From an uncultured Gemmatimonadales bacterium (GTDB taxonomy: Bacteria; Gemmatimonadota; Gemmatimonadetes; Gemmatimonadales; GWC2-71-9), in contig CAWHFW010000005.1 in the NCBI GenBank assembly GCA_963828735.1, positions 2,233,261-2,297,260 on the forward strand: a DNA stretch of 64,000 nucleotides. Direction: 5' to 3'. The position numbers and the translations under genes were made by a program. The notes beneath the pieces were generated by a model. It worked only from the letters and a program-made list of their open reading frames with translations, was not told the origin of the DNA and did no database searches. This document shows positions 25,649 through 58,336 of this stretch, piece by piece; the stretch's first letter is position 1, and each line of letters begins with the position of its first letter.

Positions 25649-26218
25649 CTACCTCACCATCACCGGCCGCGACCGCATCCCGCCCACCACGCCGTCCGCC
25701 TCGCAGTGCGCATCCCGCGCGCTGTACACCACGCAGAACACGCCATCCGCATGCCACCGCTCGTACCACCGCCGCATGACGCCGCGGTCCTGCGCCGAAA
25801 AGCGGGTGGACGGCAGGTCCTCGGTGTAGAGGGCGACGTGAGTGTGCACCGTGCCGGACCAGTCGGGCGGCCCGCAGCGGTCGATCGAGGCTTCGGCGGC
25901 GATGCTCAGGGAATCCGCTCCGGTAGGAACGAGCGCGAGGATCCGGGCGACGAACACCGTGTCGTTCCGGACGGTCGCGGCCAGGCAGGCGACCCGCTCC
26001 TGCTTGGCGGCGACGCTCTCCTCCCAGAGTGCGCGGAGGCCGAGGCCGGCCTCCTGTCTGAAGCGAAACGCGGGCTGGGGAGCGTTGGAGATGCTGTCGG
26101 GCGCGGCGCTGTCCGCGGCGGGCGGCGTGTCGGCGTTGGCCTGCGCCGCCGCGGGCCGGACGGCCACGACGCTCGCCGCCAGAACGGCGGCGAGCGCGAT
26201 GCGGCGCCCAGCGCTCAA
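25649..26218 (-). CDS. secreted hypothetical protein with JAMM/MPN+-like motif set (paralog B)
   Basis: TTG 26218 overlaps the paralog A stop (TTGA). Signal peptide RRIALAAVLAASVVAVRPAAAQA. Motifs ERVACL, GTVHTH, FSAQD. Four conserved Cys. Confidence 0.6.
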   Translation of the reverse strand: MSAGRRIALAAVLAASVVAVRPAAAQANADTPPAADSAAPDSISNAPQPAFRFRQEAGLGLRALWEESVAAKQERVACLAATVRNDTVFVARILALVPTGADSLSIAAEASIDRCGPPDWSGTVHTHVALYTEDLPSTRFSAQDRGVMRRWYERWHADGVFCVVYSARDAHCEADGVVGGMRSRPVMVR

Positions 26219-26697
26219 TACTTCGCGCTGGGGAGAATCACCACCTGGGAGCCGTCGATCTCGCAATGGGCCTGGTCCTCGGCGAAGAGCAGGCAGAAGG
26301 TGCCGTCGGCCTTCCAGCGCTGCCACCACATCAGCATGATCCCACGATCCGCGCCGGAGAACTGGGCGTAGGGTCGCTGGCCGGCGGTGAGCGCGATGTG
26401 GGTGTGCACGGTGCCCTGCCACAGGGGCGGGCCGCAGGCCTCGAGGGAGGCCTGGGCCGACACCGCGAGCGAATCCGCCCCCGCGACGAGCGGTTGGACC
26501 CGAGTGATCCGCAGAGTGTCGCCGTCGATGACACTCGCGAGACAGGCGACCTGCTCCGTCCGTGCAGCGATGCTGGCGCTCCAGAGCGCGTGCAGGCCCG
26601 TGACGGCCTCGGAGGTCACACTGAACGCGAGCGGCGCGCTCCCATGGGGCAGGGCGAGTGGGAGGGCCAGGATCGCCAGGGCCAACCGAGCCGTCAT
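26215..26697 (-). CDS. secreted hypothetical protein with JAMM/MPN+-like motif set (paralog A)
   Basis: ATGA overlap with the beta-propeller gene. Signal peptide MTARLALAILALPLALP. Motifs EQVACL, GTVHTH, FSGAD. Aligns with paralog B over about 120 aa. Confidence 0.6.
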   Translation of the reverse strand: MTARLALAILALPLALPHGSAPLAFSVTSEAVTGLHALWSASIAARTEQVACLASVIDGDTLRITRVQPLVAGADSLAVSAQASLEACGPPLWQGTVHTHIALTAGQRPYAQFSGADRGIMLMWWQRWKADGTFCLLFAEDQAHCEIDGSQVVILPSAKY

Positions 26698-27803
26698 GGG
26701 GCCTCGCCCAGGGCGACGCCCCAGGGGATCTTGCCCACCGGAATCCTCTTCTCGACCGTCAGCTTGTCGGCATCCACCACGCTCACGTCGTTCGACGGGC
26801 CATTGGCCGTGTACAGCTTCCGGCCATCCGGGGTGATCGCGATGCCCCAGGGGCGCTGCCCCACCGGCACCGACGCGGTCAGCGAATCCGTGGCGACCTC
26901 GATCACGGACACGGTTCCTCCTCGTCCGTTGGTCACGTAGATCCGCTTGCCGTCCGGCGAGGCGACCGAGCCCATCGTCCTCGAATCCTTGGGCATCGGA
27001 AGCACCGCGATCTTCTTCCGGGTCGCCGCGTCGAGCACCCAGACGGTACCGTCGACCTCGGACGTGACGTACGCTCTGGCGCCGTCTGGCGTGAACGCGA
27101 GCGACCGCGGCCGCTTCCCGACCTCCACCTCGCCGATCTTCTTGCCGGTCTGAGTGTCCAGGATGGTGACGTTGTGATCCGTCTCGCCCGTCACCCAGAC
27201 AGCCTTCCCGTCGGGCTGGACCTTCACGCCCTCAGGCTCTTTCCCGACGGGGATGGTCGCGCGAATCTTCCCGCTCGCCACGTCCACGATCGACGCGGTG
27301 CCCGCATCCTCGTTGGAGACGAAGAGCGTGCTGCCGTCGAGGCTGATGTCGAACGCCTCCGGGTCCGACCCGCCCGGGAGCACGCGAGTCACCTTGCGCG
27401 CCACGGCGTCCACCACCGCGATGCCGTCCTTCGACTTGTCGGACTTGAGCTTTTCGCACTCCTCGTCGGGCATGGTCGGCGGACACTTCGGGCTCCCGCT
27501 CAGCGCGACGAAGATGGTCTTGCCGTCGGGACTCACGCGCACGCCGCGTGGCCGGGTGCCGACGGGGATGGTGGTCACCACGCTGTCCGTACGCGTGTCG
27601 ATCACGGTGAGGTCCTGCGAGTCCTCGTTCGTGACGTAGGCCAGCAGCGCCTTGCCGGCCGGCGCGGCGGCCTGGCTCGGCGCGGCCGAGTCGGTGGCCG
27701 ACGGGCGAGCCTCACGCGGCCCGCACGCGGCACCGAGGGCGAGGGCGAGCGCCGGGGCGGCGCGAAGGCGAACGATAGGGCGGCGGTCGGTATTACTTGG
27801 CAT
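26694..27803 (-). CDS. YVTN-type beta-propeller protein (PQQ-dependent catabolism-associated type)
   Basis: Repeated about 40-aa units (AYVTNEDSQDLTVID..., VSPDGKTIFV, LFVSNEDAGTASIVD, AYVTSEVDGTVWVLD, IYVTNGRGGTVSVIE, LYTANGPSNDVSVVD). Confidence 0.85.
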   Translation of the reverse strand: MPSNTDRRPIVRLRAAPALALALGAACGPREARPSATDSAAPSQAAAPAGKALLAYVTNEDSQDLTVIDTRTDSVVTTIPVGTRPRGVRVSPDGKTIFVALSGSPKCPPTMPDEECEKLKSDKSKDGIAVVDAVARKVTRVLPGGSDPEAFDISLDGSTLFVSNEDAGTASIVDVASGKIRATIPVGKEPEGVKVQPDGKAVWVTGETDHNVTILDTQTGKKIGEVEVGKRPRSLAFTPDGARAYVTSEVDGTVWVLDAATRKKIAVLPMPKDSRTMGSVASPDGKRIYVTNGRGGTVSVIEVATDSLTASVPVGQRPWGIAITPDGRKLYTANGPSNDVSVVDADKLTVEKRIPVGKIPWGVALGEAP

Positions 27804-28683: not shown

Positions 28684-28763
28684 CGCTCGCCCCCCGTTGG
28701 GGTGGTCGTGGGACCGTGCCTCGTGAACATATCCGGACTCGGCCTGCTTGGCCAACGTACCGG

Positions 28764-28802: not shown

Positions 28803-28823
28803 GGCCGTGCCACCCTCGAGCGG

Positions 28824-29264
28824 TCAGCCCTCGCGTTTGACCGCTGGTCGGCCGGGCGCGAGCTTCGCGTCGCTTCTCGCCTTCACATAGCTGTAGATCT
28901 TGTCGATCGTTGGGATCTCCATCCCGAGCGAGCACCAGGACGGCATGCCCTTCTCCGGACGTCCGGCGCAGACCGTCTGCATGAACAGCTCTTTCGTGTT
29001 GATCGGTCCGTCGGCCTTGAGCGAGAGGATCAAGTGCGGGGCGAAGGACGTCCCGAGCGCGTCCTCACCGTGGCACCGGGCACAGTTCAGGTTGAACTGC
29101 TTCCACCCGTCGTACACCTCCTGGGTCACAGTGTCCCGCGGCGCCTGGTGGTAGGCATCGCGGAGCTCCTGGGCGACGGCGCGCGTCGTGAGGGCCGAGG
29201 CTGCCAGGAGCACGCCGGCACCCAGCACGATCCGGCGAAGAACGGCGGTGAGGGGCGTACGCAT
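28824..29264 (-). CDS. xoxG: c-type cytochrome, methanol-metabolism type (XoxG-like)
   Basis: Signal peptide, heme motif CARCH, extra Cys pair (VCAGRPEKGMPSWC). Lies directly after xoxJ. Confidence 0.75.
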   Translation of the reverse strand: MRTPLTAVLRRIVLGAGVLLAASALTTRAVAQELRDAYHQAPRDTVTQEVYDGWKQFNLNCARCHGEDALGTSFAPHLILSLKADGPINTKELFMQTVCAGRPEKGMPSWCSLGMEIPTIDKIYSYVKARSDAKLAPGRPAVKREG

Positions 29265-29383: not shown

Positions 29384-30274
29384 TCATCCCGGCCCGGCCT
29401 TCTTGGCCGTATCGGTCGCGGACTTTTCCTGGGCCTCGGTGACGATCGGCAGCATCGGGATGTTGTACTGCTTGAGAATGCCGTCGATCTCCGGCCGCCG
29501 CCGGTCGAGCACCGCCTGGACGCTGTCGCGGAAGTCCTTGTCACGCCGGCGGACGGCGATGCCCATGTTGTATTGGAACGGAATGTCGCTCAGGCTGTCC
29601 TTCGCCGGGAGAGGCGTGAGCACGAGCGGCACGGGGGACTGCTTCGCGAAGTAGCCGGCGAGCGGCCCCCAGACGATGGCGAGGTCCACGTCCTTGTTGG
29701 CCACACCCTTGATGATGTCCTCTGGGCGCTCTTTGTCACTGAAAAACGTGAAATAGCCGGTCAGGTTGCCCACCACGCCATAGCGGCTCAGGGCCATGGC
29801 CGGCGGCGAGTTCTCGGCGTCGGAGGTGTACATGTTGACGCCGATCTTGAGCTTCTTGAGCCGCGGGTCGGCCAGCGACTTGAGGTCCTCGAGCCCGCTG
29901 CCCTGACGAACCACGAACACATAGCCCGAGCGGAAGTAGGGCTTGGTTACGCCGGCTATGTCGAGGCCGGCCGGCGCCTCCATCGCCATGTCGCAGTACA
30001 TGCCGTTCAGGATGCGGAAGTAGCCTCGCCGCGTGGGGTACCACACGTAGGTCAGTTTGGCCTTCAGCTCCGTCGCGACCAGCTCCGCGATCTTGTTCTC
30101 GAAGCCCTCACTCTTTTCGTTGGACGAGGGCATGTTGTCCGGGTCGGCACAGACCCGGATGAGGCCCGGGTCCCTGGGCGCGGGGCGCTGGGCATGAGCC
30201 GGTACGGCCCGGACCAGGCCGAAGCCGGCCAGCACCAGGAAACACGCAGTCTGTGAAGCACGGTGCGACATCAC
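29384..30274 (-). CDS. xoxJ: quinoprotein-dehydrogenase-associated periplasmic binding protein (MoxJ/XoxJ-like)
   Basis: Signal peptide. LIRVCADPDNMPSSN...GFENKIAELVA... is a type-2 periplasmic-binding fold, as in MoxJ. Sits between xoxF and the cytochrome gene. Confidence 0.8.
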   Translation of the reverse strand: MMSHRASQTACFLVLAGFGLVRAVPAHAQRPAPRDPGLIRVCADPDNMPSSNEKSEGFENKIAELVATELKAKLTYVWYPTRRGYFRILNGMYCDMAMEAPAGLDIAGVTKPYFRSGYVFVVRQGSGLEDLKSLADPRLKKLKIGVNMYTSDAENSPPAMALSRYGVVGNLTGYFTFFSDKERPEDIIKGVANKDVDLAIVWGPLAGYFAKQSPVPLVLTPLPAKDSLSDIPFQYNMGIAVRRRDKDFRDSVQAVLDRRRPEIDGILKQYNIPMLPIVTEAQEKSATDTAKKAGPG

Positions 30275-30305
30275 GCCATCCTGTCTCGAGTCTCTCCTGA
30301 ACGAC

Positions 30306-30409: not shown

Positions 30410-32293
30410 TTACTTCGGCGCCGCCATGTTCTTGAGACCGAACACGGTCATCACGCCGCCCTGGGTGCTGAACTGGCCCGCGTCGCCGAAGGCGCCGAGC
30501 GCGCCGAGACCGGCGGTCGGATCTTCTGCGCCGATGCCAGCGGCCACGCCGATACCGGCCCAGCCGCCGATGCCCGAGTAGACGGCCACGTACTGCTGGC
30601 CATCCGGCCCGAGGTAGGTCATCGGGTTGCCGATGATGCCCGACGGCGTCTTGAACTGCCAGAGGACCTTGCCGGTCTTGGCATCGACGCCCTTGAGCCA
30701 GCCTTCCATGGTGCCGTAGAAGACGAGCCCGCCGGCCGTGGTCATGGCCCCGCCGTACGCCGCGAGGTTCTCCTTGATCTCCCACACCACGGAGCCCTTC
30801 ATCGGATCCCAGGCGATGAACCGGCCGCGATGGCCGCCGGGGCCCGGGAACATCCGCACGATCGCGCCGACGTACGGCTGACCGGCGGTGTACTTCACCT
30901 CGACGCCTTCATAGTCCATGCAGATGTGGTTCGCCGGGACGTAGAAGAGGCCGGTGACCGGCGAGTACGCCGAGGGCTGCTGATCCTTGAAGCCGATGGC
31001 GGCCGGGCAGATGCCCTCGCCGTTCTTCTTCGAGGAGGTGCCGTACTTCGGATCCTTGACCGGCACGCCGGTGGTCGTGACGCCCTCGACCGGGGTGCCC
31101 GTGCCGCCGTTTTTGGCCCAGTTGATCGGGCCGTACGCGTTGCCGACGATAACCTTGCCGTTGGTGCGGTCGACCGTGTACGCGATGCCGTTACGATCGA
31201 AGTGGGCAAGCAGCTTCTTGCCACCGCTCTCGAACAGCACGTTCTCGTTCACGCCGTCATAGTCCCACTCATCGTGCGGGGTCATCTGGTAGGCCCAGAC
31301 CACCGTGCCGTCATCCGGCTTCCGCGCGAACATGGTCATCGACCACTTGTTGTCGCCCGGCCGCTGGTCAGGATTCCAGGTGCCCGGGTTGCCCACGCTG
31401 TAGTAGAAGTTGTCGAGCTCGGGGTCGTAGGAGTACCAGCCCCACGTGGTCCCGCCGCCCCGCTTCCACTCGTCGCCCTGCCAGGTCGAGACGCCGAGAT
31501 CCTTGCCCTTGTGAGACGGATAGTTCGCGTTCGCGTCGCCCTTGAGGAGGACTTCGTCGTCCGGGCCGGTGCTGTAGCCGGTCCAGATGTGCTCGCCCGT
31601 GTTGGCGTCGAAGGCCGAGACGCGGCCGCGCACGCCGAACTCGCCGCCGGAGATACCGGCGATGACGATTTCCTTGCCCGACTTGGTCTTGATGTAGATC
31701 GGGGCGTTGGTCATCGTGGCGCCCTGCTTGTAGCCGTTGGCCTCGACCCCGGCGTTCGAGTGATCCGGGTGCTTGGCCTTCCACAGCTCCTTGCCGGTCT
31801 TCGCGTCGAGGGCGATCAGCTCACCCTGCAGCGCCTGGATGTAGATCTTCCCGCTCGGGCTGTACGCCGTTCCACGATTCACCAGGTCGCAGCACGCGAT
31901 TGGAATCGCGTCGGGCGACTGGTTGGGCACGTACTTCCAGATCTGCGGCGCGCCGGGCTTCGACAGATCGAGCGCGTACACGATGTTCGGGAAGGACGTG
32001 TTGACGTACATCACATTGCCGATGACGAGCGGATTGCCCTCGTGGCCGCGCAGCGTGCCGGTCGAGAACGACCAGACGGGCCGCAGCTCGCCGACGTTGG
32101 CCGTCGTGATCTGCTTGAGCGGGCTGAACCGCTGCAGGCTGTAATCACGGCCGGTCATCGTCCATTCGCCCTCTTTGCCGTTCAGGGTCCATGCCCCTGT
32201 ACGAGCAGCCTGGGCGTTGGCGGACGCAACGAAGGCTACGCTCAGCCCCGCCGCGATCCCGCCGCACAGCACCTTCTGCGTAAAGCGGTTCAT
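30410..32293 (-). CDS. xoxF: PQQ-dependent methanol/ethanol dehydrogenase, lanthanide-type (XoxF)
   Basis: ATG 32293 with GAGG SD. Signal peptide. Vicinal disulfide IACCD. W-repeat propeller. WDYDGVNE carries the extra Asp characteristic of XoxF (MxaF has Ala there). 627 aa. The track ORF to 32818 is a spurious extension. Confidence 0.93.
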   Translation of the reverse strand: MNRFTQKVLCGGIAAGLSVAFVASANAQAARTGAWTLNGKEGEWTMTGRDYSLQRFSPLKQITTANVGELRPVWSFSTGTLRGHEGNPLVIGNVMYVNTSFPNIVYALDLSKPGAPQIWKYVPNQSPDAIPIACCDLVNRGTAYSPSGKIYIQALQGELIALDAKTGKELWKAKHPDHSNAGVEANGYKQGATMTNAPIYIKTKSGKEIVIAGISGGEFGVRGRVSAFDANTGEHIWTGYSTGPDDEVLLKGDANANYPSHKGKDLGVSTWQGDEWKRGGGTTWGWYSYDPELDNFYYSVGNPGTWNPDQRPGDNKWSMTMFARKPDDGTVVWAYQMTPHDEWDYDGVNENVLFESGGKKLLAHFDRNGIAYTVDRTNGKVIVGNAYGPINWAKNGGTGTPVEGVTTTGVPVKDPKYGTSSKKNGEGICPAAIGFKDQQPSAYSPVTGLFYVPANHICMDYEGVEVKYTAGQPYVGAIVRMFPGPGGHRGRFIAWDPMKGSVVWEIKENLAAYGGAMTTAGGLVFYGTMEGWLKGVDAKTGKVLWQFKTPSGIIGNPMTYLGPDGQQYVAVYSGIGGWAGIGVAAGIGAEDPTAGLGALGAFGDAGQFSTQGGVMTVFGLKNMAAPK

Positions 32294-33038
32294 AACTGAC
32301 CTCAGGATGAAGGGTGGTTCTACTGCTCTACTGCATTTCGTTGCCGCGTGCTGGCTGACGTGTGCTGCGAGTGCCGGGGGCGGCTGAGGCGGCGACTGGG
32401 CTCGAGTCCCGCTCGTGGCTGCCGGCCGGCGCGACCTACGGACTGGCAGGACGGCCGGGCGGCGACGGCGGACCTCGTTCGGCCATCGCGGGGTCCCCGC
32501 GCTCGCTGCGGGATGGGGTTCTCCCTGAAGTACGCCTCGAGACAGCCCCGCGGATGGTCGCGGGATGCGCCACGGCGTCAGGGCACCGGGCTGGACTCGG
32601 GCACGAGGCAACGCTGTGAGGAGTGCGAAAACGACCAAGGGAAGGGAGCGACGAGGACCGGAAGGACAGGGGTGACGCGGTATGCCCGTTCGGATGCCAC
32701 CGCCACCGCGTCGTTCCCGTGCGCCACGCGCCCTGCGAGGCGCAGGACCGCGCATCGACCGCGAGGGAATACGACATCGTGCCAACGGTGGAAGCGAACG
32801 GGAACAAGCCCATCTCACCCCTCAGCGTCGCCGCTGAACCACGTTGTGCTCATTTAAAGAACTGCACTTGAGGAGGCGGCTCGGCACTGTGCCGCCCGAA
32901 ACATTCTTCTGTTCCAAGCCCTGGAAACACTGGAGCAGTCCCGCGACAGTCGACTGTGGCACTGCGACGCGAACATCAGCCAAGTCGCCGCCTGCGGGAG
33001 GCTTAGAGGGGCCAGTATACATCGTGCAAAATGAACTG

Positions 33039-34016
33039 TCAATCACGGTTTCCGGCATTTCGCGACCGCCAGACCCGGGCCCCGGACCCCGCGAATCCCC
33101 CCTCGAAAACCTGGCCGCCCGGTCCCGCCACCTCCGCTGCCCGCCCCGCCAGCGCCCGTCCCTCCTCCACGCTCCCGACCAGCCCATACACCGCGGGCCC
33201 CCAGGAGCTCTGCCCGACCCCCGCCGCCCCCCACTCCGCCAGGCGTCCGACCAGCGTTTCCGAGGGGCCGCGCGCGAAGGTCCCGCCTTGCTCGGGAGCG
33301 AACCACGCGCCGGTGATGCGCTGGATCTCCGTGAGCGCGGCGCCGAAGCTCGTGAGATCGGCCTCCGCCAGCGCCGGCAACAGCTGCATCAGCACCAGGT
33401 GCGCGACGCGCTCCACTTCACGCTCGGCGGGCGGCGCGAGCCGTTCGAACGCCGCGGCCTCGGCGTCGCCGCTCAAGCCAGGGGTGCCCCGAGGCACCAC
33501 CACCACGCAGCGCCATGTTGCCGGAAGTGGAAAACGGGCCAGCAGCGGTGCGATGTCGCCCGCCCCCGGCCTGCGTCCACCTTCCACGATGAAGCCGCCC
33601 AGGGCGAATGTCCAGGTGCCGATCGCCGATCGGCGGCCACGGTCCACCGCGCGCGCCAGGGCGGCGGGCTCGGTCGGGAGGCCGTAGAGCTCCGCGAGCG
33701 CGCGCGCCACGGCCAGGCCGAGCTGGGTGCCGGAGCCGAGTCCGCTGTGCGGCGGGATCGCCCGATGCACCGTCAGACGCACGCCGCCAGTGAGCTCGTG
33801 GTGGGCGAGGAATCGCTCCGCGAACGCCATGGCGCGCTCCGCCTCCGGTCCACGGGCGCTCAACCCTGTGGCCCGGACCGCCTCCAGCAACAGCGATGGC
33901 GCCGGCACTGCGGCGCCCAGTCCGCCAAAGCGCCGGCCCAGTGCCCCGCGGAGGTCGAGCACCCCGAAATGGAGCCGGGCATCCGCCTCCACGAAGACGC
34001 TACCGGTCTCGGACAT
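33039..34016 (-). CDS. mptG: beta-ribofuranosylaminobenzene 5'-phosphate synthase (GHMP-kinase fold)
   Basis: ATG 34016. ARLHFGVLDL...IPPHSGLGSGTQLGLAVARAL is typical of beta-RFAP synthase, the first committed H4MPT step. pabAB lie upstream. Confidence 0.8.
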   Translation of the reverse strand: MSETGSVFVEADARLHFGVLDLRGALGRRFGGLGAAVPAPSLLLEAVRATGLSARGPEAERAMAFAERFLAHHELTGGVRLTVHRAIPPHSGLGSGTQLGLAVARALAELYGLPTEPAALARAVDRGRRSAIGTWTFALGGFIVEGGRRPGAGDIAPLLARFPLPATWRCVVVVPRGTPGLSGDAEAAAFERLAPPAEREVERVAHLVLMQLLPALAEADLTSFGAALTEIQRITGAWFAPEQGGTFARGPSETLVGRLAEWGAAGVGQSSWGPAVYGLVGSVEEGRALAGRAAEVAGPGGQVFEGGFAGSGARVWRSRNAGNRD

Positions 34017-34545
34017 ACTCGGTGAGCATGGCCATCGCCTCATGCTCGCGCGGTCCGGCGGTCTTGTCCACGATGACCTGCAGGCGGGCGAACTCGGAGC
34101 GGATCTCCTCGCGCGGGATGAGGTGTGTCCGGGTCGCGAAGATGGCGGCCTCGAGCACCGCGTGGCGGGCGCGGTTGAAGCCGAGGAACTCCCGCCGGTT
34201 TCCGCGATGCACCACGCGGGTCTCGATGCGCGATCTGGGTGGCGTGTCGTCGATCGACACCACCTCGAGCTCGCGCCAGGAGCAAGCGGCCTCGAGCACC
34301 GCCCCGCGCACCACCGTCGCCGGCAGCCAGGGGAACTGGGGACTCGAAATGGCCCCCTGGGCGAACAGCATGACGTCGTCGGTGAGATTGACGACGGCCA
34401 CCCGCGTCTCGCGCACGTTGCGGAACGTGGTCGTCTCGAGAAACGGCTTGATGACGATCGTCGGGTCGCCCCACTCGACGCCCATGGGGGCGAAGTTGAT
34501 CGCCCCATCCGGCGCCATCGTCGTCAGGATGGACTCGATGATCAC
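34000..34545 (-). CDS. DUF447-family protein (H4MPT-cluster associated)
   Basis: GTG 34545 overlaps the pabA stop (GTGA). VIIESILTTMAPDGAINFAPMGV... is a flavin-reductase-like split barrel. Confidence 0.7.
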   Translation of the reverse strand: MIIESILTTMAPDGAINFAPMGVEWGDPTIVIKPFLETTTFRNVRETRVAVVNLTDDVMLFAQGAISSPQFPWLPATVVRGAVLEAACSWRELEVVSIDDTPPRSRIETRVVHRGNRREFLGFNRARHAVLEAAIFATRTHLIPREEIRSEFARLQVIVDKTAGPREHEAMAMLTEYVRDR

Positions 34546-35216
34546 CGCACGATATCCACCGGCGGTGGGGCGGAGGCGAGCGTGCTCTCTTCGGGGCCCG
34601 CGGGCACGAGCACGCAGTCGGCAGCGACGGGCACGGCGCGGGGAGTGGCCGGAACCCCGTGCAGGAAGTGATCGACCAGGCGGTAGCCGTGCTCCGTCAG
34701 CACCGATTCCGGGTGGAACTGCACCCCGTGCACCGGGTGCCGGGCGTGCTGGACGGCCATGATCTCGCCGTCCTCGGACGTCGCCAGGACCTCGAGATCG
34801 GACGGAACGGAGGCCGGCGCGATCACGAGCGAGTGGTATCGGGTCGCGCGAAACGGCGAGGGCAAGCCGTGAAAGATGCCGGCGCCGGTGTGGTGGATCA
34901 TCGAGGTCTTGCCGTGCATGGGCTGACCGGCTCGAACGATCTCGCCGCCGTAGGCGGCCCCGATGCATTGGTGTCCCAGACACACTCCCAGGATCGGTAT
35001 CGTGGCGCCGAGACGGCGGACGACCTCGGTGGAAATCCCCGCCTCGGCGGGCGAGCAGGGACCCGGGGAAATGATGATGTGGGAGGGCGCCATCGCTTCC
35101 ACGTCATCGACGCTCAGGGCGTCGTGCCGGAGGACCACCGGGGTTTCCCCGAGCTCACGGACGTAGCGCGCCAGGTTGTAGACGAACGAGTCGTAGTTGT
35201 CGAGCAGGAGGATCAT
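34542..35216 (-). CDS. pabA: aminodeoxychorismate/anthranilate synthase component II (glutamine amidotransferase)
   Basis: MILLLDNYDSFVYNL, GVCLGHQ (catalytic Cys), VQFHPES. ATGA overlap with pabB. Confidence 0.85.
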   Translation of the reverse strand: MILLLDNYDSFVYNLARYVRELGETPVVLRHDALSVDDVEAMAPSHIIISPGPCSPAEAGISTEVVRRLGATIPILGVCLGHQCIGAAYGGEIVRAGQPMHGKTSMIHHTGAGIFHGLPSPFRATRYHSLVIAPASVPSDLEVLATSEDGEIMAVQHARHPVHGVQFHPESVLTEHGYRLVDHFLHGVPATPRAVPVAADCVLVPAGPEESTLASAPPPVDIVR

Positions 35217-36706
35217 GAGCCGGCCAGCGCGCCGATCAACCCGCGCGCCTTGTCCAGAGTTTCCCGGTATTCGAGCTCGGGATCGGAATCGGCCACGATT
35301 CCGCCGCCCGCCTGGAAGTATACCCGGCCCCGAAGCGCCAGATAGGTACGGATCACGATGCTCGTATCCATCGCGCCCGTCGTCGACAGATACCCGATGG
35401 AGCCGCAGTACACGCCGCGGCGGGACGGCTCGAGCTCGGCGATGATCTCCATCGCCCGGACCTTGGGCGCGCCCGTGATTGAGCCGCCTGGAAACGCCGC
35501 GCGAAGGAGCTGAATCGCATCCGCCGACGGGTCGAGCTCGCCGACGACGGTCGACACGAGATGATGCACGGTCGGATGCGCCTCGAGCGCGAACAGCTCG
35601 GGCACGCGGACGGTCCCCGCCTTGCACACCCGCGAGAGGTCGTTCCGCAGCAGATCCACGATCATCACGTTCTCGGCCCGGTCCTTGTCGCTCTCGGCGA
35701 GGGCGCGACCGAGCGCGGCGTCGTGCATCGGGCCGAGCCCGCGGGGACGGGTGCCCTTGATGGGGCGGGTCTCGACGTGGCGCCCGTTCTCGTCCAGCCG
35801 AAGGAACCGCTCCGGCGAGGCGCTCATCACGTGGTGGCTGCCGCAGTCGAGATAGGCGGCAAACGGGGCCGGATTCCGGCGCCGGAGGCGGGTGTAGAGA
35901 TCGAACGGCGCCTCGGTGAGCGGCGACTGGAAACGCTGGGAGAGGTTGGCCTGGAAGATGTCCCCGGCGACGATGTAGTCGCGGACGCGAGTGACCGCGT
36001 CGAGGTAGCCGCGGTGCGTGAACGTCGAGCGGAGTCCGATCGGCTCCGCCCGCTCCACGCCGAGCACCGGGTAGGACGGCGCCTCCGCCTCTACGGGCGG
36101 GAGGTGCGGACGTCCGCCGGTCGCGGGCCGTCGGGCGGGACCGCCCAACCGCTCCCGCACCATCGCCAACCGCTCGCGCGCACGGACCTCGCGCGCCACG
36201 CCGGACTCGGGCAGCCCGGTCGAGATGATCCAGGCCGTTCCGACCCGGTGGTCCCACGCGATGACCCAGTCGTACAGGCCGAGAATGACGTCGGGGATCG
36301 CGAGGTCGTCGAACCGGGGCGCCGGCAGGCGCTCGAGGGCCGCGCCGTAGTCGTATCCGATGTACCCGGCGGCGCCTCCCTGGAATGGTGGCAGGCCCGA
36401 GACGGGCGCGGCGGCGAACGGCGCCAGCAGCTCCCCCACGGTGAGCAGGGGATCCGCGTCGGTAGGTGTCCACGGGAGGCCAGGGCCACCGATCTCCGTC
36501 GTCCGCCCCTTGCTGCGCACGATCCGCGCGGGGTCGGCGGCGAGGAACGAGTAGCGGCCGAGGTGGTGAGCGTCGCCCCCGCGCGGGGCGCCCGTGGCGC
36601 TGTCGAGAAACACGAGCCACGGAAGGTCGAGGAACCGGGCGACGACCGCGATCGGGTCCCCCGTCTCGCCCAGGTTGTCTACCAGCGGGGCCGCACGATC
36701 GTCCAT
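35213..36706 (-). CDS. pabB: aminodeoxychorismate synthase component I
   Basis: ATG 36706 (TAATG overlap). Chorismate-binding core SPERFL, PIKGTRPRG, DRAENVMIVDLLRND, FPGGSITGAPK, YCGSIGY. Confidence 0.85.
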   Translation of the reverse strand: MDDRAAPLVDNLGETGDPIAVVARFLDLPWLVFLDSATGAPRGGDAHHLGRYSFLAADPARIVRSKGRTTEIGGPGLPWTPTDADPLLTVGELLAPFAAAPVSGLPPFQGGAAGYIGYDYGAALERLPAPRFDDLAIPDVILGLYDWVIAWDHRVGTAWIISTGLPESGVAREVRARERLAMVRERLGGPARRPATGGRPHLPPVEAEAPSYPVLGVERAEPIGLRSTFTHRGYLDAVTRVRDYIVAGDIFQANLSQRFQSPLTEAPFDLYTRLRRRNPAPFAAYLDCGSHHVMSASPERFLRLDENGRHVETRPIKGTRPRGLGPMHDAALGRALAESDKDRAENVMIVDLLRNDLSRVCKAGTVRVPELFALEAHPTVHHLVSTVVGELDPSADAIQLLRAAFPGGSITGAPKVRAMEIIAELEPSRRGVYCGSIGYLSTTGAMDTSIVIRTYLALRGRVYFQAGGGIVADSDPELEYRETLDKARGLIGALAGS

Positions 36707-40477: not shown

Positions 40478-40602
40478 CGCGAATTGCCGGAAAGGCGCCA
40501 GGCACCCGCCTGCTGCGGCCCGTCCAACTGTCCGCCCCACAAGCTTTTTCGTCTCATGCCCCGTGGGGCATAAGCCTTGCCGACTGGCGCGACCGTGTTG
40601 GC

Positions 40603-45245: not shown

Positions 45246-45277
45246 TGGGCTTCGGTCCCTGATAAGTTGGGGTGACC

Positions 45278-48336: not shown

Positions 48337-49057
48337 CGCCGACCTTCTTGAACGCCGGGGTCGCGGTGCCTTTCTTGAGCTCATCCATCGAGTTGAAGCA
48401 CAGCTCCGCCTGGCGGTACTCGGCCGGCGCCGAACCGTCGAGGTTCGACTCGAACCGGGTCAGGTCCGCGCGGGTGAAGCCGATCTCCGGCTGGCCCGTG
48501 CCGACGAGCGGCAGATGCGTCTCGGAATAGTAGGACTCGAAGGCCGCGCTGTCCTTGGGCGCGTTGTAGATCACGGTGACGAGCGCCGGGCACGCCGCCG
48601 AACCCTTCTCGCCGGTTTCGACTGCCACCATGCCGAGAAGGCCACCCGTGGCGAACTTCGAGAGGTCGTCGCCGACCGCCTTGAAGCCCGGGGTCGCCAT
48701 GCCCTTCTTGAGGTCGTCCATGGAGTTGAAGTACAGCTCCGCCTGCCGGTAGAAAGTCGGCTTCTTGCCGTCGAGCGTGCTGGTGAACTTGGTCAGCTCC
48801 GCCTTGGTGAATCCGATCTCCTGCTGCTTGCTGCCCACGAGCGGCAGGTGGACCTCCTTGTAGTACTTCTCGAACGCCGCCGGATCCTTGGGCGTCTTGT
48901 AGATGACCGTGACGATCGCCTGCGGCCCTGCCGGTGCGGCGGGCGCGGCCGCCGTCGCGGTGTCCGCGGGCGGCGCTTCGGCCGGCTTGTCGGCGGGCTT
49001 GCTGCACGCCGTCGCGAGCGTCAGGGAGGAAACCAGCCAGATCGGAAACCGTCGCAT
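48278..49057 (-). CDS. lipoprotein with two tandem EthD-like domains
   Basis: Lipobox LTLATAC. Two roughly 105-aa repeats (VTVIYKTPKDPAAFEKYYKEVHLPLV...ELYFNSMDDLKKG... and VTVIYNAPKDSAAFESYYSETHLPLV...ELCFNSMDELKKG...). Confidence 0.75.
   Translation of the reverse strand: MRRFPIWLVSSLTLATACSKPADKPAEAPPADTATAAAPAAPAGPQAIVTVIYKTPKDPAAFEKYYKEVHLPLVGSKQQEIGFTKAELTKFTSTLDGKKPTFYRQAELYFNSMDDLKKGMATPGFKAVGDDLSKFATGGLLGMVAVETGEKGSAACPALVTVIYNAPKDSAAFESYYSETHLPLVGTGQPEIGFTRADLTRFESNLDGSAPAEYRQAELCFNSMDELKKGTATPAFKKVGDDLPRFATGGLTALIGEQQ
48281..48925 (-). repeat. intragenic tandem duplication (about 320 bp x2, roughly 70-75% identical by eye)
   Basis: The DNA of the two EthD-like halves aligns directly (for example ...gtcgccgacc..cttgaa.cccggggtcgc...cttcttgag.tc.tccat.gagttgaag.acagctccgcctg.cggta...). 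Confidence 0.7.
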
Positions 49058-49091: not shown

Positions 49092-50066
49092 TCAGCTCGG
49101 GTAACACGACGCGGTCAGCACCTCGGGATTCAGGTGCCCCGCGTGGAACGTCCGGCCACTCTCGGTACTCGTGAGCCATACTTCCGCGGGACTGAAGAGC
49201 AGGGGGTCGATCTTGTAGAAGTCGCCCTCGTACCGCTGGAAGATCTCGTAGAACGGTGTGCCGTAGTCGCGGGATGCGGACGCCGGGACCTTGGGCGCCA
49301 GCTCCGCCAGCTCCGCGTCGCTCGCGCGAACCGTGTAGCGCGCCTGCCCACCGTACAGGATACAGTCGTTGGTCCGACCGATGGCGCGCAGGTCGTTCTT
49401 GGCCACGGGTGCGATCGGCGCGGTGCCTATCGCGCTCACCACGCGCCGGACGTCGAATCCCAGCGTCTCCATCTTGTGCAGGCCCGTTTCCAGGATCCGG
49501 GCCGAGATCTGCACGCCGCCCGCGAGGCTCGCGGTCGGCGCGACCACGAAAGTGAGCTGGGAGGGCTGCAGGCGGGCCTTCTCCGCCACCCAGAAGGCCA
49601 CCGCGTCGGTGGGGAGGGTGCGCCCCTCGAGAACCATCACGCCCTGGGCGGCCTCCTCCGCGTAGTCGAGCTTCTCGAACAGCTCGCGCTCGACGCGTGC
49701 GTGCGCCCGGAGCGGGCCCGATCCCATGGCGAAGAACTTGTCCACCGAGATGGCCCACCCCGCGTACTGCGAGGCCATGCACGAGACGGCCGGGTGATCG
49801 GTCCACACCGTGAGTCCGGGCCACGCCTCGCCGCCGACCTGAATCGGGGAGTAGGTCACGTTGCCCAACCCACCCATGCAGATCTCGCCCAGCAGAAGCC
49901 CGGCGTCGTAGCCGCCTTCGATCTCCACTCCGGCATCGATGACGCGCGCGCCGCTGGGGAGGGTCCGGGATCGCACGCGAAGCGTGGCGGCGTGCTCCTC
50001 GAGATGATCTGCGATCTCCGTCGCGAGCTCGTTCATCTGGAGCCCGGTCGTCGTCACGCTGTCCAT
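49092..50066 (-). CDS. mch: methenyltetrahydromethanopterin cyclohydrolase
   Basis: Full-length Mch-like sequence (LNVNELA-type N-terminus, GGYDAGLLLGEICMGGLG, ASQYAGW, FAMGSGPLRA, RTNDCILYGG). Confidence 0.93.
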   Translation of the reverse strand: MDSVTTTGLQMNELATEIADHLEEHAATLRVRSRTLPSGARVIDAGVEIEGGYDAGLLLGEICMGGLGNVTYSPIQVGGEAWPGLTVWTDHPAVSCMASQYAGWAISVDKFFAMGSGPLRAHARVERELFEKLDYAEEAAQGVMVLEGRTLPTDAVAFWVAEKARLQPSQLTFVVAPTASLAGGVQISARILETGLHKMETLGFDVRRVVSAIGTAPIAPVAKNDLRAIGRTNDCILYGGQARYTVRASDAELAELAPKVPASASRDYGTPFYEIFQRYEGDFYKIDPLLFSPAEVWLTSTESGRTFHAGHLNPEVLTASCYPS

Positions 50067-51711: not shown

Positions 51712-51718
51712 CGCCGCC

Positions 51719-53372
51719 TCAACCCGTGACCACCGGCTCGCCGGGCAGGTCGCTCACCGCATAGTTGTCGAACGACACCGTGGCATACCGCTCGAAATGA
51801 CGCCGGAGGTCGGGCAACACCGCGTCGTCGTACCCGGGAGCCACGCGCAGGCGGCGGCCGGCGGGGGCCCGTCGCAGGTGACCCTCCTCGACGATCACCA
51901 GGCCGTCCTTGATGACGTAGCGCGGCGTCGAGAACATGGCGGCCAGGTCCGCATTGCGGCTGTAGATCGTCACATCCGCGTCGGCGCCCGGCCCGAGGTG
52001 GCCCTTGGCCCGAAGCCCGAGAAGGCGCGCCGGCCCGGCCCGCGTGATGATCGCGATCTCGTTCAGGGTGTACTCGCGGGCGAGCCCGTCCGCCAGGGCG
52101 CTCCCCGCGACGAGCTTGGGGTTCACCCGCTTGAGCTGCTCATCGCGCACGGCCCGGTCCATCAGGAGCTGGATCAGCGCCGGATACGAGAGGAACGAGC
52201 CGCCGTTCGGATGGTCGGTGGAGAGCACCACCCGCCATGGATCCGCGCTCAGGAGGAACAGTTCCAGCCCGACCGCCCACTGCAGCGCACTGACCGCCGC
52301 CTTGTCCTTGTAGATCAGCGGGACGATCCCGCAGCCCGTCTCCAGCTCGATGTCGATGTTGGTCCAGCGGCGGCCGCTGCTCTTGTGAAGCAGGTACTCG
52401 ACGGGCGCGTCCGCGGTGATGGTCGTCGCGGGGCCGAACATCACCTGGCCCACGTCGACGCTCACCTCCGGGTGCGTGTTGACGTAGTCCATCACCTCGG
52501 ACGCGGCGGAGCTCCACGGCTGGCCGCCGCCCCCGCCGTAGCAATGGAACTGCAGGTGCGTGAAGTGCGCGCGCCGGCCCGCCACGGCTTCCATGCTCGC
52601 CAGCGTCGTGGCGGCGTTGCCGGCCACGCCGAGATTGTTGCAGTGGATGTGGACCGGGTGCGGCAGACGAAGCCCGTTCGCCGCGTCCGTGAGCGTCTCC
52701 AGGATCGTCCGGGGTGTCAGGTCACGGCCGCTCACCGAGTCGTCGATGGTGGCGACGTTCCGCTGTCCCGTCTTCCACGCCTCGATGCCGCCCGGATTCA
52801 CGATCTTGACCGCGTATCCGCCGGTCGCTCCCAGAAGCCACGCCGCGTAGTCGCGCGCACGATCCCGTTCGCCGGCCTCGATCTGGCGCAGGAGGTACTC
52901 GTCGTTCCCCATGAGGACGAAGATGCCGCCGTCGACGCACGGCGTGTCGTCCAGCTCGCTGTGGCTGTGCCGCGCCGTGAGCGGCGCGACGGCTGCGTCG
53001 AATGCCGTGGTGTAGCCCAGGCCGGCGTACCGGTATCCCGTCGTGAAGGTGCTCGGAACCGTACCCGCCCGTCCCCGAGCGGGCGAGCGGCTGGTCGTCG
53101 TCGAGCGTCGGTGCCGGCGCGGGATCGGCGGCGTGCTCGTCGGGGATGAGCCGGCGGGCGTGGTTGCAGCTGGAGCTGGCGAAGTGGGAATGGATGTCCA
53201 CTCCGCCAGGCATCACGACCATGCCGCGCGCGTCGAGCGTCGGCGCACCGGCCGGGAGATCGGCGACGATGCGCCCATTCTCGATGCAGATGTCGCGGAC
53301 GTCGCCGTCGACGCCGTTTGCCGGGTCGTGAATCGCGCCGCCGACGATCCGAAGCCGCGTCGGCGCGCTCAT
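51719..53372 (-). pseudogene. fhcA: formyltransferase/hydrolase complex subunit A (FwdA-like amidohydrolase), one +1 frame break
   Basis: The N-terminus (MSAPTRLRIVGGAIHDPANGVDG...MPGGVDIHSHF...ARSGTG) lies in the frame of ORF 52722..53678. The remainder (GTVPSTFTTGYRYAGLGYTTAFDAAV...MGNDEYLL... to the stop) lies in the frame of ORF 51719..52912. The junction is at GTACCCGCCC around 53061-53070. 1654 nt is 551 codons plus 1. Confidence 0.85.
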
Positions 53373-54646
53373 CCGAGCCTCCGCGCGCCACGCGCGCGAA
53401 GCGCCGCGAGCAGCGCCGACAGCACGTCCACCGCCGTTCGGGTCGCGGGGAGCGGCGGGCGCAGCGGCAGCGGAATGTCGTCCATCCGATACGCGGTCCC
53501 GCCCTCGTGAATGCCCGGCGACGCCGGTGTCGACGGCGACCCGCGCCGGAAGCTTCGCCTCGCTCGCGCGGGGACCGATGATCACCACGGGAACGCGGGT
53601 CGCGACGGCAGCGATCTCGTCGACAATGGCCGCCGCCGCGCCGACCATCAGGATAGCGCCCGCTTCACGCTGCCGCATTCGCGACCCCCCGGGAAGCCGG
53701 CGTGTATTGCGGGTAGCCGGGTCGATAGCTGATGGCGATCGGGTAGCCGGTTTGCGAGGTGAGCACCATCTCCGCGCCCGAACGATTGCCGCCCGCTCGG
53801 AGCGAGCTGAGCGCGGCGCGCGTCGGTCCGTTCAGCGCCTCGGCCAGCGCAACAAGTCCTTCCGCCCGATAGCCGTCTCGGTCCTCGCCGCCAGGCTCGG
53901 CATCGTGCACGACGGCGGCGTAGCGCGCCTTCGTAAGGCGGCCAGCGATGTCGGCGGCCTGCTGCAGCGATGCGGGCAGCTCGCCGAGCGCGTTGCCCAG
54001 CGCCACGGCCCGCATCACCGAGAGCGCTGGGATCTCCTGGTCGGGGCTTAGCGAGAGCTCCACGTCCAGCACCCGTCGGGCCTCGGTCCCGGCCGACGCT
54101 CACCGCCATCACGGTGCGCCCGGCCCGTCCCTTCGGCACGTGCGTACCAGCAGGCTCCGGCGCGTACCGCGACCAGTATCGCGGGTAGCGCTCGCTCGGG
54201 TCCACCGCCCAGAAGAGGAGCATGTCCGCCCGATTGCGGATCTCGCCGAGGGTAGCGGCCGCACGCCCACGCCGCTGCGCCACCAGAAGGCCCGCCGCCG
54301 CCGGCTCCGACGTGGCTGTCTCCACCCGCGCGCGCAGCAGGTCGGCGAGCGCGAGTGACGCGCGCTGCGCCTGTGCGCTGATCTCCGGAGCCAGGACGAC
54401 CAGGACATTTCCCGTAGCACCGGCCAGCACGTCGGCGGCGTCGGCGATCGCGGCATCGAGCGGGACCTCCTGTCCCGAGCGACGCACGGCGGTCGGGACG
54501 CTGCCATCGGCGAACCACGTCCTCGCGAGAGGGCACGGCGGCGAGACGTTGGTGATCGCTGCGCCCGAGACCTCGACGACGAGGTCATCGCAGCCGCATC
54601 CGCAGCCCAGGCAGGTCACCGCGGCGATCCGCGTGGTCGGGCTCAC
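53369..54646 (-). pseudogene. fhcB: formyltransferase/hydrolase complex subunit B (FwdB-like), three +1 frame breaks
   Basis: GTG 54646 (GTGA overlap). Segment 1 runs from CLGCGCGCDD to ...MAVSVG. Frame shifts to segment 2 (TEARRVLDVELSLSPDQ...GYPQYTPASRG), then segment 3 (SRMRQREAGAILMVG...VAVDTGVAG), then segment 4 (IHEGGTAYRMDDIPLPL...stop, ATGA overlap with fhcA). The breaks lie at CCC 54088-54090, C6 53685-53690 and CCC 53514-53516. Confidence 0.8.
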
Positions 54647-56842: not shown

Positions 56843-56846
56843 CGAC

Positions 56847-57719
56847 TCACCGCTTCTGTTTCACCATCTCCCGTGCCACGTCCGCGATCGCCTCGGCGTC
56901 GAGGACCAGATCGTTCCGGGTGAAGAGCTTCGCGACGCACGCCTTGTGGAGCTTGGTCTTGAAGTTGCCCACGCCGAACGCGCCGAACACCGTCACGCCC
57001 TCCCGCTCCTCGCCGGCGTCCTTGACCTCGACGCCTTCGATGCCGAGCGGCGGCACGGCGTTGAGGTCCACCGCGATCTTGAGCGTCTTGACGCTGGTCC
57101 ACGCCGCTTTGGGCACCATCTGCACGCCGGCCGGACCGGAGTTGAGCAGTACGTCCACGCCATCCAGCAGTTCGGGCAGCTTGGACGGATCGCTCATCGC
57201 GACGGCCTTCACCTCGACGCTGAAGCGGGCGTCGATGAACTGCCGCGCCTTGTCGCCCTGCTCGGGCTTGCGCGACGTGATCGTGACGCGCGCGCCGTCC
57301 TTCGCGAGCAGTCCGGCCGCCCGCTGGCCGACCGGTCCCGTGCCCGCCAGGATGAGAATGTTCTTGCCCGTGAGATCCCCGAACAGCTCCTCGATCTTGA
57401 CCACCGCGGCGACCGCCGTGGTGTTCGAGCCGTTGGAGTCGAGCATGATCGAGACGCAGAACGGCGCGAAGAGCGAGTCCTGCGCCATGGCGAGGAGCTG
57501 CTCGCCGGCCGACATGTTGTTGCCGCCGATCCAGACCGCGGTGTTGTGCAGGTCCTTGGTGCCGCGGGTGAAGATGCAGCCGTGGATGAGATCGCGGACA
57601 TCCCCTTCGGTCACGCCGCCGTAGCTCATGATCGCGTCGGCACCGGCATCGTAGGCCACCACCTGGTCGAACACACTCGGCAACCGTGAACTGTCGAGCT
57701 GGAGCAGAAGCTTTCGCAT
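56847..57719 (-). CDS. mtdB: NAD(P)-dependent methylenetetrahydromethanopterin dehydrogenase
   Basis: MRKLLLQLDSS...PSVFD.VV.YD.GAD...MLDSNGSNTTA...LAGTGPVG...NA.PPLGI resembles MtdB throughout. An alternative ATG lies at 57731. Confidence 0.9.
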   Translation of the reverse strand: MRKLLLQLDSSRLPSVFDQVVAYDAGADAIMSYGGVTEGDVRDLIHGCIFTRGTKDLHNTAVWIGGNNMSAGEQLLAMAQDSLFAPFCVSIMLDSNGSNTTAVAAVVKIEELFGDLTGKNILILAGTGPVGQRAAGLLAKDGARVTITSRKPEQGDKARQFIDARFSVEVKAVAMSDPSKLPELLDGVDVLLNSGPAGVQMVPKAAWTSVKTLKIAVDLNAVPPLGIEGVEVKDAGEEREGVTVFGAFGVGNFKTKLHKACVAKLFTRNDLVLDAEAIADVAREMVKQKR

Positions 57720-57823
57720 CGCCGAACCCATCTCCGTCCGTCAGAAGGTCCTGGGAAAAATACGAGGGGCGGCCCGACCTCGGGCGCCCCTCGTCGACAC
57801 GCCGGGAATGCGGGACTGTACGA

Positions 57824-58336
57824 TCAGCCCTCGGCGCCGCTGGCGAACGGATGCCGCGCGGCCTTGTACTTCGAGAGCACCTCGTCGACGGTGGGCGTGC
57901 CCTTGAGCGCCCGGGCGATCGACTCCTTCACCGCCTGGTAGTTGAAGGAATAGATCTTCTTGTCGTCTTCGGCCTGCCAGTGGATAAACACGCCCACGAG
58001 GATGCAGAGGTCGTTCGCCTGCGTCTTCGAGATGACCCCCTCGTTCACCGAATCCATGACTGCGCGGGCGACGGCCGCCTGCGCCGGGCCGAACATCTGC
58101 ACGGCCTGCTTCGCACCCTTGATGGTGACCTTGTTGAAGAGCAGCGTGTCCGGCTTGCAGGGAAGGTTCGGGGTTACCACGGCGAGAAGAGTGGAGAAGC
58201 CGTCTTTGTTGTTGGAGAGCGCGTGGGTGAAGGCTGCACCGGCCGACCCGGACTTCGATCCGATGATCAGGTCGATATGCGCAATCTCGTTGCCATCGCC
58301 GACGAGCGACTCACCGATGAAGAAATCCGCGGCCAT
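57824..58336 (-). CDS. fae: formaldehyde-activating enzyme
   Basis: ATG 58336 preceded by GGAGG at a 5-nt spacing. [19 protein letters not shown]...[22 protein letters not shown]...QMFGPAQ...LVGVFIHW matches Fae. 170 aa. Confidence 0.95.

Follow-up and report, generated by a model that had tools for sequence, protein, structure and literature searches.

The window analysed here, 64,000 nucleotides from an uncultured Gemmatimonadales bacterium, contains between positions 25649 and 58336 a contiguous 33-kb stretch in which almost all genes belong to one theme. This stretch is very probably the methylotrophy cluster on the chromosome of this soil-type organism, and represents the system reported by Butterfield et al. 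(2016) for soil Gemmatimonadetes. Its genes are predicted from their sequences to encode lanthanide-dependent methanol oxidation, followed by the conversion of formaldehyde to formate. An earlier note, made from the letters of the window, had proposed such an island; all the gene families that it named were found where it had placed them, with strong profile matches. The window has a GC content of about 69% and raw lists of its open reading frames (ORFs) are rich in spurious frames; genes were called by third-position GC (GC3) and a codon log-odds score, and the candidates were scanned against Pfam and NCBIfam (Table 1). The genome is a metagenome-assembled genome (MAG) of 7 contigs and 4.78 Mb, 97.5% complete; positions outside the window are given below with a contig handle (C2, C4, C5).

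On the minus strand the order of transcription is fae, mtd, DUF1464, ATP-grasp ligase, fhcB, fhcA, fhcD, fhcC and mch, then a double-EthD lipoprotein, a RimK-type glutamate ligase, CitG-like, 6-pyruvoyltetrahydropterin synthase family (PTPS), MfnF-like and an MfnE-like kinase, then a short-chain dehydrogenase/reductase (SDR), pterin-4a-carbinolamine dehydratase (PCD), a dihydropteroate-synthase-like protein (DHPS-like), pabB, pabA, DUF447 and mptG. After a spacer of 745 bp come xoxF, xoxJ, xoxG, a pentapeptide protein, a TIGR03866 beta-propeller and two secreted paralogs. The plus strand carries an Orf17-type HisA/F-like gene, mfnB, and the genes of a 99-aa SWIM protein and of a HAMP-GAF-GGDEF-EAL membrane protein. 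Genes on the flanks (efflux, extracytoplasmic function sigma factor, helicase, TSP3-OmpA, phosphofructokinase, S9 peptidase, DoxD, PD40-Omp85 fusion) are unrelated.

XoxF belongs over its full length to the family of pyrroloquinoline quinone (PQQ) methanol/ethanol dehydrogenases (TIGR03075). Against all PDB chains its best scores were 682 bits with 4MAE, the Ce/La enzyme of Methylacidiphilum fumariolicum, and 675 with 6OC5, XoxF1 of M. extorquens. By class, the scores were 621-682 bits for XoxF structures, ~525-580 for MxaF, 333-338 for PedH and 319 for ExaA; on these PDB scores, on which its class placement rests, the window enzyme is XoxF-type, not ethanol-type, and is predicted to carry out lanthanide methanol oxidation. 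In enzymes with the DYD signature the Asp two residues after the catalytic Asp is a lanthanide ligand, and MxaF has an Ala at that position. The ligand Asp is present here: HDEWDYDG aligns with WDSWDYDG of 4MAE, as expected from the DYDG signature already reported for this gene. The vicinal CC, SGGEFG, NPGTWN and HFDRNG segments also align with 4MAE, and the active-site Glu, Asn, Asp and Arg segments are conserved. The window XoxF aligns at full length with the solved structures (M. fumariolicum SolV, 4MAE/6FKW; M. extorquens XoxF1, 6OC5), with which it has in common the DYD and Cys-Cys pairs as well as the Glu/Asn/Arg active-site segments; it differs from them by additional short insertions, e.g. 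around residues ~180-210.

The linkage of xoxF to xoxJ and xoxG, also part of the initial reading, is borne out by a XoxJ-like protein over the TIGR03871 cut-off and by a c-type cytochrome with a CARCH motif, though the latter matches TIGR03874 only weakly. Likewise the PQQ-catabolism accessory genes proposed there are represented by the beta-propeller protein, which matches TIGR03866. The spacer 5' of xoxF is the probable promoter and regulatory region of this gene; the Rfam scan of the window found no family. The genome encodes six PQQ-dependent alcohol dehydrogenases (PQQ-ADHs), the window XoxF included, and only the window copy adjoins genes for the tetrahydromethanopterin (H4MPT) pathway. 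Among the five others, DYD occurs in two, which share 48-51% identity with the window XoxF; one of these two (C5:524011-525576) has its own xoxJ-like neighbour, at C5:523083-523796. At the aligned positions the remaining three show DLD, DLD and GYD. An xoxG-like paralog, 77% identical, lies at C5:355393-355731 and is followed by a second cytochrome (41% identical); this region (C5:355004-355731) is far from any xoxF.

The genes of formaldehyde oxidation, namely Fae, methylene-H4MPT dehydrogenase (Mtd) and Mch, are all present. Fae aligns at full length with M. extorquens Fae (1Y5Y, 212.6 bits) and Mtd scores ~260 bits against the MtdA structures of M. extorquens; both genes are single-copy in the genome. 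The name mtdB used in the earlier note holds for the presence of an Mtd gene, but its subtype is based on context only, because no MtdB reference was in the comparison and MtdA, MtdB and MtdC are not distinguishable here. Mch and FhcD are far above the equivalog cut-offs, FhcD also scoring 307-312 bits with solved formyltransferases. Of the genes for the Fhc subunits, fhcC and fhcD are uninterrupted and exceed their cut-offs; the other two, fhcA and fhcB, can be recognised along their whole length but are frame-broken as assembled, and no FhcA or FhcB paralog was found elsewhere in the genome. Consequently the fae, mch and fhc set is present as claimed, and the transcription order fhcB-A-D-C was correctly given, but the set is complete-looking only once the frames of fhcA and fhcB are corrected, a point absent from the earlier note.

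Cofactor synthesis is represented for both H4MPT and methylofuran by MptG and by homologs of MfnB, MfnE and MfnF, the match of the MfnE-like protein being weak (68 bits). MptG has further matches to NF040726 (181 bits) and to GHMP kinase domains. PabB and MptG are over the TIGR00553 and TIGR00144 cut-offs, in agreement with the proposal that pabAB and mptG lie together in the cluster, and a TrpE-like paralog separate from pabB is located outside the island (C5:876477). The embedding of pabAB in such a cluster is nothing unusual: Matsen et al. (2013, PMC3615186) describe pabB as a common companion of H4MPT biosynthesis genes in methylotrophs and also list a pcbD-mptG gene island, and Beck et al. 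(2014, PMC4109929) count pabB with the genes of the H4MPT pathway in Methylophilaceae, so that this arrangement is not new. The DHPS-like gene probably starts near 38130.

The list of pterin-branch genes drawn up beforehand needs to be divided. Its DHPS-like, PTPS, PCD, CitG-like and DUF447 members are present, but the RimK-type ligase and the HisA/F-like protein were misplaced. In M. extorquens, Orf22, Orf21 and Orf9 are homologs of MfnB, MfnE and MfnF; Orf5 (RimK-type, MptN-like) is MyfB and OrfY is MyfA, both being methylofuran glutamate ligases; and Orf17 (HisA/F-like) is required for methylofuran, not for H4MPT (Hemmann et al. 2021, PMC8141765). The RimK-type ligase and the HisA/F-like protein of the window correspond to MyfB/Orf5 and Orf17, and its second ATP-grasp protein is, from the same study, the probable MyfA/OrfY; these are therefore methylofuran genes rather than pterin genes. 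In the same way mfnB is present (PF04476), but it is not the single gene of its kind, as about six island genes serve methylofuran.

The lineage deduced from the letters, Gemmatimonadota, agrees with a scan of species-representative genomes for Mch. It returned 584 relatives; the best 80 are 71-89% identical and almost all are labelled Gemmatimonadales, Gemmatimonadaceae or Gemmatimonadota/-etes MAGs. Within the genus, Mch was found in 20 of 24 genomes in one sample and in 24 of 24 in a second. Across a sample of the phylum it was found in 85 of 401 genomes and 21 of 147 genera; about a fifth of the sampled species thus encode it, concentrated in the family of this genome. From fae to pabB the core genes keep their order in 43 loci with full flanks. 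Two congeners (G004 and G020) match the window in the order of the entire 33 kb, in the GGDEF-EAL gene and in the left flank; the genes of the right flank turned up only in G004. A recent acquisition of the island by horizontal transfer was considered and rejected: its GC is that of the genome on average, and a congener shows synteny on both sides. Given the conserved order, the flanks and the matching GC, the cluster is a vertically kept trait of the lineage, not a recent island.

The closest known system is the Gemmatimonadetes contig of Butterfield et al. 2016 (PeerJ 4:e2687, PMC5103831), from the same order-level lineage, where xoxF stands beside H4MPT biosynthesis genes, fae, mtdB, mch and fhc; the legend of its Fig. 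S3 describes exactly this neighbourhood. Two contigs which by their names belong to MAGs of that study (L049 and L052) match the window nearly exactly in gene order, with fae-mtd-DUF1464-ATPgrasp-fhcB/A/D/C-mch-EthD-ligase, continued after the ligase by PTPS-hisAF-mfnF-mfnB-SDR-PCD-DHPSlike-pabB. Their Mch is only ~74% identical to that of the window, which places the window genome in a different genus, and compared with these contigs the window assembly stands apart by its broken frames in fhcA and fhcB. The cluster has been known from this lineage since 2016 (PMC5103831), and the window carries an ordinary further member of it, a genus-level variant. With the "archaeal-like" cluster of proteobacteria (Methylorubrum extorquens; PMC8141765, PMC3615186) it shares the families fae, mtd, mch, fhcABCD and mptG, as well as Orf22/MfnB, Orf21/MfnE, Orf9/MfnF, Orf17, Orf5/MyfB and an OrfY/MyfA-like ATP-grasp protein; the CitG-like, DUF447, pabB and PCD associations are also common to M. 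extorquens or other proteobacterial methylotrophs. The disparities are the order fhcB-A-D-C instead of fhcCDAB, the grouping of all genes in one 33-kb block with xoxFJG, and the addition of a lineage-specific EthD lipoprotein, SDR, GGDEF-EAL and SWIM genes. No DmrA-type reductase was recognised in the window island.

The earlier note had stated, correctly according to the Pfam and NCBIfam scans of the window genes, that no genes for PQQ synthesis, formate dehydrogenase or carbon assimilation lie in the window, and had called for a search of the genome; the outcome of that search favours its reading. All five genes of PQQ synthesis, pqqA (MKWTKPEAEVVAVTMEVTAYVATL), pqqB, pqqC, pqqD and pqqE, were found at ~C5:1222900-1226042, pqqC and pqqE being split by frame breaks. 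A formate dehydrogenase alpha subunit (664 bits, C5:22542-24410) has an in-frame TGA in a CNRT-U-HAPS context, which probably makes it a selenocysteine enzyme; an in-frame TGA also occurs in another molybdopterin oxidoreductase, at C5:2561114-2564038. For assimilation, ftfL and a serine-cycle cluster were found, and no true RuBisCO. FtfL (formate-tetrahydrofolate ligase) scores 857 bits, and a row of serine-cycle genes on C4 encodes glycerate kinase, a serine/aspartate-glyoxylate-type aminotransferase, a malyl-CoA-lyase-like protein, hydroxypyruvate/glyoxylate reductase and phosphoenolpyruvate carboxylase, together with the beta (MtkA, 701 bits, over cut-off) and alpha (MtkB) subunits of malate-CoA ligase. 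The Calvin-Benson-Bassham cycle was rejected as a route, the sole RuBisCO-family match of the genome (74.5 bits) being of the RuBisCO-like protein type, and so was the ethylmalonyl-CoA pathway, as the genome has no ccr (best score 114 bits against a cut-off of 378).

From what is known of these families, a working scheme can be proposed. Periplasmic XoxF, with PQQ and a lanthanide ion, would oxidise methanol and pass the electrons to the c-type cytochrome XoxG, XoxJ acting as a putative periplasmic helper. Fae would then bind formaldehyde to H4MPT, Mtd would oxidise the product and Mch hydrolyse it, after which the FhcABCD complex would transfer the formyl group to methylofuran and release it as formate. 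In the H4MPT branch, pabAB would supply p-aminobenzoate, from which MptG would make beta-ribofuranosylaminobenzene 5'-phosphate, with the DHPS-like, PTPS, PCD, DUF447 and CitG-like proteins as further candidates; the methylofuran branch would comprise the MfnB/E/F-like and Orf17-like proteins and the MyfA/MyfB-like glutamate ligases. Outside the island, pqqABCDE would make PQQ, the predicted selenocysteine formate dehydrogenase could burn formate, and FtfL with the serine-cycle cluster (sga, mcl, mtkAB, hpr, ppc, gck) could assimilate it.

The breaks in fhcA and fhcB raise the question of whether this pathway is decaying. They were located by following the three-frame translation against the intact orthologs of G004 and G020. 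Neither gene is readable as a single ORF, with one break in fhcA and three in fhcB, all +1. If these breaks and those of pqqC and pqqE were real, formyl-methylofuran hydrolysis and PQQ synthesis would have been lost, and the grouping of four breaks within ~1 kb of fhcA/fhcB, with two more in the pqq operon, goes in this direction. We nevertheless regard such decay as very unlikely. On either side of its break FhcA shares 83-84% identity with the intact ortholog of G020, the pieces of fhcB share 50-79% with theirs, and the corrected proteins contain no in-frame stops; the other island genes are all intact, as are fhcA and fhcB in both congeners. Besides, we scanned the whole 4.78-Mb genome by codon score for same-strand switches of coding frame that do not occur at a stop codon. 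The scan gave 157 candidates, of which 132 (84%) are +1; as it detected just two of the four fhc breaks already located, it sets 157 as a lower bound and the true number is higher. Breaks thus occur about once per 10-30 kb across the genome, and further broken genes include pqqC (~C5:1224100), pqqE (~C5:1225800-1225900) and the OmpA gene of the window (~20990). They sit in short C/G runs, several of them in CCNGG-like contexts. Because they are one-directional, genome-wide and this frequent, we read them as errors of long-read assembly: the genome-wide pattern has the appearance of a systematic long-read error, perhaps linked to a methylated motif, and the four +1 breaks of fhcA and fhcB, judged by this pattern and by the orthologs, are most probably assembly errors and not gene decay. 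As the assembly carries many single-base frame errors, its apparent pseudogenes fhcA, fhcB, pqqC and pqqE should not be taken as biology without the reads.

Two other explanations concern the function of the cluster. It might serve only dissimilation or detoxification ("methylovory"), methanol and formaldehyde being converted to formate and CO2 without growth on C1 carbon. H4MPT modules do serve formaldehyde detoxification in non-methylotrophs, the six PQQ-ADH paralogs suggest a broad use of alcohols, and the absence of ccr, of a true RuBisCO and of a convincing isocitrate lyase is in keeping with this. We consider it unlikely all the same, in view of FtfL, of a complete-looking serine-cycle row with its diagnostic malate-CoA ligase, and of the serine-cycle assimilation that Butterfield et al. 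infer for the lineage (PMC5103831). Alternatively, the XoxF-like enzyme could act mainly on other alcohols or aldehydes, in an ethanol-type role, its linkage to H4MPT genes being incidental. XoxF-type enzymes do accept several alcohols as well as formaldehyde, and several paralogs of the genome are DxD-type. This is scarcely credible: the check for an ethanol-type (ExaF/PedH) placement gave a score about twice as high with XoxF structures as with PedH or ExaA, the window copy directly adjoins xoxJ, xoxG and the H4MPT genes, and the two genomes of the genus that were examined (G004 and G020) retain this linkage. Moreover, the Gemmatimonadetes XoxF is reported to have been the most abundant protein of a soil proteome, with proteome support also reported for each pathway on that contig (PMC5103831).

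The reading as a lanthanide-dependent methylotrophy cluster accordingly remains the preferred one, and some points have to be set against it. The genome search found no route for the regeneration of glyoxylate (ccr is absent and the isocitrate lyase family gives only a weak match of ~70 bits), and for this reason growth on methanol as sole carbon source is not assured. The genes fhcA and fhcB are interrupted as assembled, the status of their breaks as errors being deduced, not proven. XoxG, MfnB/E/F, MptN and the DHPS-like protein are below NCBIfam equivalog cut-offs. Finally, the estimated contamination of the MAG is 5.2%.

Table 1. Features of the methylotrophy cluster and related genes elsewhere in the genome. 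Positions are those of the window unless a contig handle precedes them.
Feature	Position	Strand	Match or other evidence
Two tandem paralogous secreted proteins, ~189 + 160 aa, end of xox accessory block	25649..26697	-	no family match
PQQ-dependent-catabolism-associated beta-propeller protein	26694..27803	-	TIGR03866 255.9 bits, just under 287 cut-off; YVTN repeats 238 bits
Pentapeptide-repeat protein, N-terminal hydrophobic segment	27793..28683	-	PF00805 150.8 bits; start inferred from sequence
xoxG-like c-type cytochrome	28824..29264	-	CARCH haem motif; TIGR03874 44.7 bits (below equivalog cut-off); PF13442
xoxJ-like periplasmic binding protein	29384..30274	-	TIGR03871 259.8 bits (cut-off 212); TIGR03870 MoxJ 118 bits
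xoxF, lanthanide-type PQQ methanol dehydrogenase, 627 aa with signal peptide	30410..32293	-	TIGR03075 630 bits (cut-off 480)
Non-coding spacer, 745 bp, 5' of xoxF	32294..33038	.	no coding-type ORF by GC3; no Rfam family
mptG, beta-ribofuranosylaminobenzene 5'-phosphate synthase (start approximate)	33039..34010	-	TIGR00144 145.2 bits (cut-off 113.5)
DUF447 protein (start approximate)	34000..34560	-	PF04289 78 bits + PF20766 48 bits
pabA, aminodeoxychorismate synthase component	34542-~35219	-	GATase 191 bits; TIGR00566 229 bits
pabB, aminodeoxychorismate synthase component	35213-~36700	-	Chorismate_bind 307 bits; TIGR00553 363 bits (cut-off 328)
DHPS-like protein (DUF6513 + Pterin_bind + DUF4346)	36706..38376	-	PF20123, PF00809, PF14251; TIGR00284 184.5 bits (<256 cut-off)
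PCD	38130-38492	-	PF01329 91.9 bits
SDR oxidoreductase	38520-39269	-	adh_short_C2 188.9 bits
MfnB/Orf22-like 4-(hydroxymethyl)-2-furancarboxaldehyde phosphate (4-HFC-P) synthase (furan ring of methylofuran)	39353..40084	+	PF04476 179.9 bits; NF002575 150 bits (below equivalog cut-off)
SWIM zinc-finger protein, 99 aa	40175-40477	+	PF04434 20.5 bits (cut-off 19.6), motif CDCGDHLWRERACKH
Membrane HAMP-GAF-GGDEF-EAL protein	40603-43575	+	EAL 256 bits, GGDEF 160 bits, plus HAMP, GAF
MfnE/Orf21-like kinase	43630-~44195	-	AA_kinase 42.7 bits; NF040622 MfnE 68 bits
MfnF/Orf9-like protein	44196-45245	-	TIGR03123 302 bits (cut-off 244); NF040623 MfnF 215 bits
HisA/HisF-like protein, Orf17 type	45272..46087	+	PF00977 106.9 bits; TIGR00734 109 bits; function from PMC8141765
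PTPS-family protein	46051-46551	-	PF01242 79.5 bits
CitG-like protein	46562-~47410	-	PF01874 261 bits
RimK-type alpha-L-glutamate ligase (MptN / MyfB-Orf5 type)	47407..48384	-	NF040720 262 bits (<350 cut-off); TIGR00768 220 bits
Lipoprotein with two tandem EthD domains	48278..49057	-	PF07110 in 2 stretches; TIGR02118 138.7 bits; lipobox LATAC
mch, methenyl-H4MPT cyclohydrolase	49092..50066	-	TIGR03120 413.7 bits (cut-off 228.8)
fhcC	50054-~50830	-	TIGR03122 143.6 bits (cut-off 130.65)
fhcD	50812-51711	-	TIGR03119 417.7 bits
fhcA, one +1 frame break ~53064-53083	51719..53372	-	TIGR03121 492 bits (C-terminal part), 80.8 bits (N-terminal part)
fhcB, three +1 frame breaks near 54090, 53688, 53515	53369..54646	-	TIGR03129 pieces, profile positions 2-182, 192-320
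ATP-grasp ligase	54643-~55800	-	PF02655 76.7 bits
DUF1464 protein	55790-56842	-	PF07318 287 bits
Methylene-H4MPT dehydrogenase (Mtd)	56847..57731	-	PF09176 Mpt_N 106 bits
fae, formaldehyde-activating enzyme	57824..58336	-	TIGR03126 244 bits (cut-off 118)
Five further PQQ-ADH paralogs	C5:524011-525576; C2:973482-975050; C5:2527768-2529294; C2:901596-903119; C4:75450-77057		
Serine-cycle gene row (gck, sga-like, mcl-like, mtkA, mtkB, hpr, ppc)	C4:206965-216534		

This genome adds one more near-complete example, on long contigs, to the indications that many uncultured soil Gemmatimonadales have full lanthanide-dependent methanol oxidation together with their own cofactor genes. Its use would be in annotation and in ecological models of methanol turnover in soil, and it leaves existing knowledge unchanged.

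A GGDEF-EAL sensor and a SWIM protein had been seen inserted in the middle of the island, and both were recovered (40175..43575). The former has intact GGDEF, EAL and DDFGTG motifs and two transmembrane segments; its gene is present in 21 of the 43 related loci, while the SWIM ORF has a tblastn match in three of them. With the window proteins as tblastn queries, neither had a match in the two contigs of the 2016 MAGs. In 36 of the 43 loci an EthD gene occupies the place from mch to the glutamate ligase, and the EthD tblastn matches in the 2016 contigs span only ~116 aa, consistent with a single domain. The GGDEF-EAL sensor, the small SWIM protein and the duplicated EthD lipoprotein are additions of this genus-level clade. 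The two tandem secreted proteins, for which the scans gave no Pfam or NCBIfam match, have signal-peptide-like N-termini and a GTVHTH motif in both, and they are kept in G004 and G020 at 50-57% identity. It is conceivable, if rather doubtful, that these non-canonical genes (tandem secreted, pentapeptide and EthD proteins and, in the clade, GGDEF-EAL and SWIM) are dedicated and so far undescribed parts of Gemmatimonadales methylotrophy. Their roles might then include periplasmic handling of lanthanides or formaldehyde and control by cyclic di-GMP of the switch to C1 metabolism.

Beyond the island, a 1057-aa fusion of peptidase-like, PD40 and Omp85 parts is encoded at 59562-62735 of the window and has no tblastn match in the G004 and G020 regions examined. 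In G004 the small ORF and the helicase which flank this fusion in the window adjoin each other directly.

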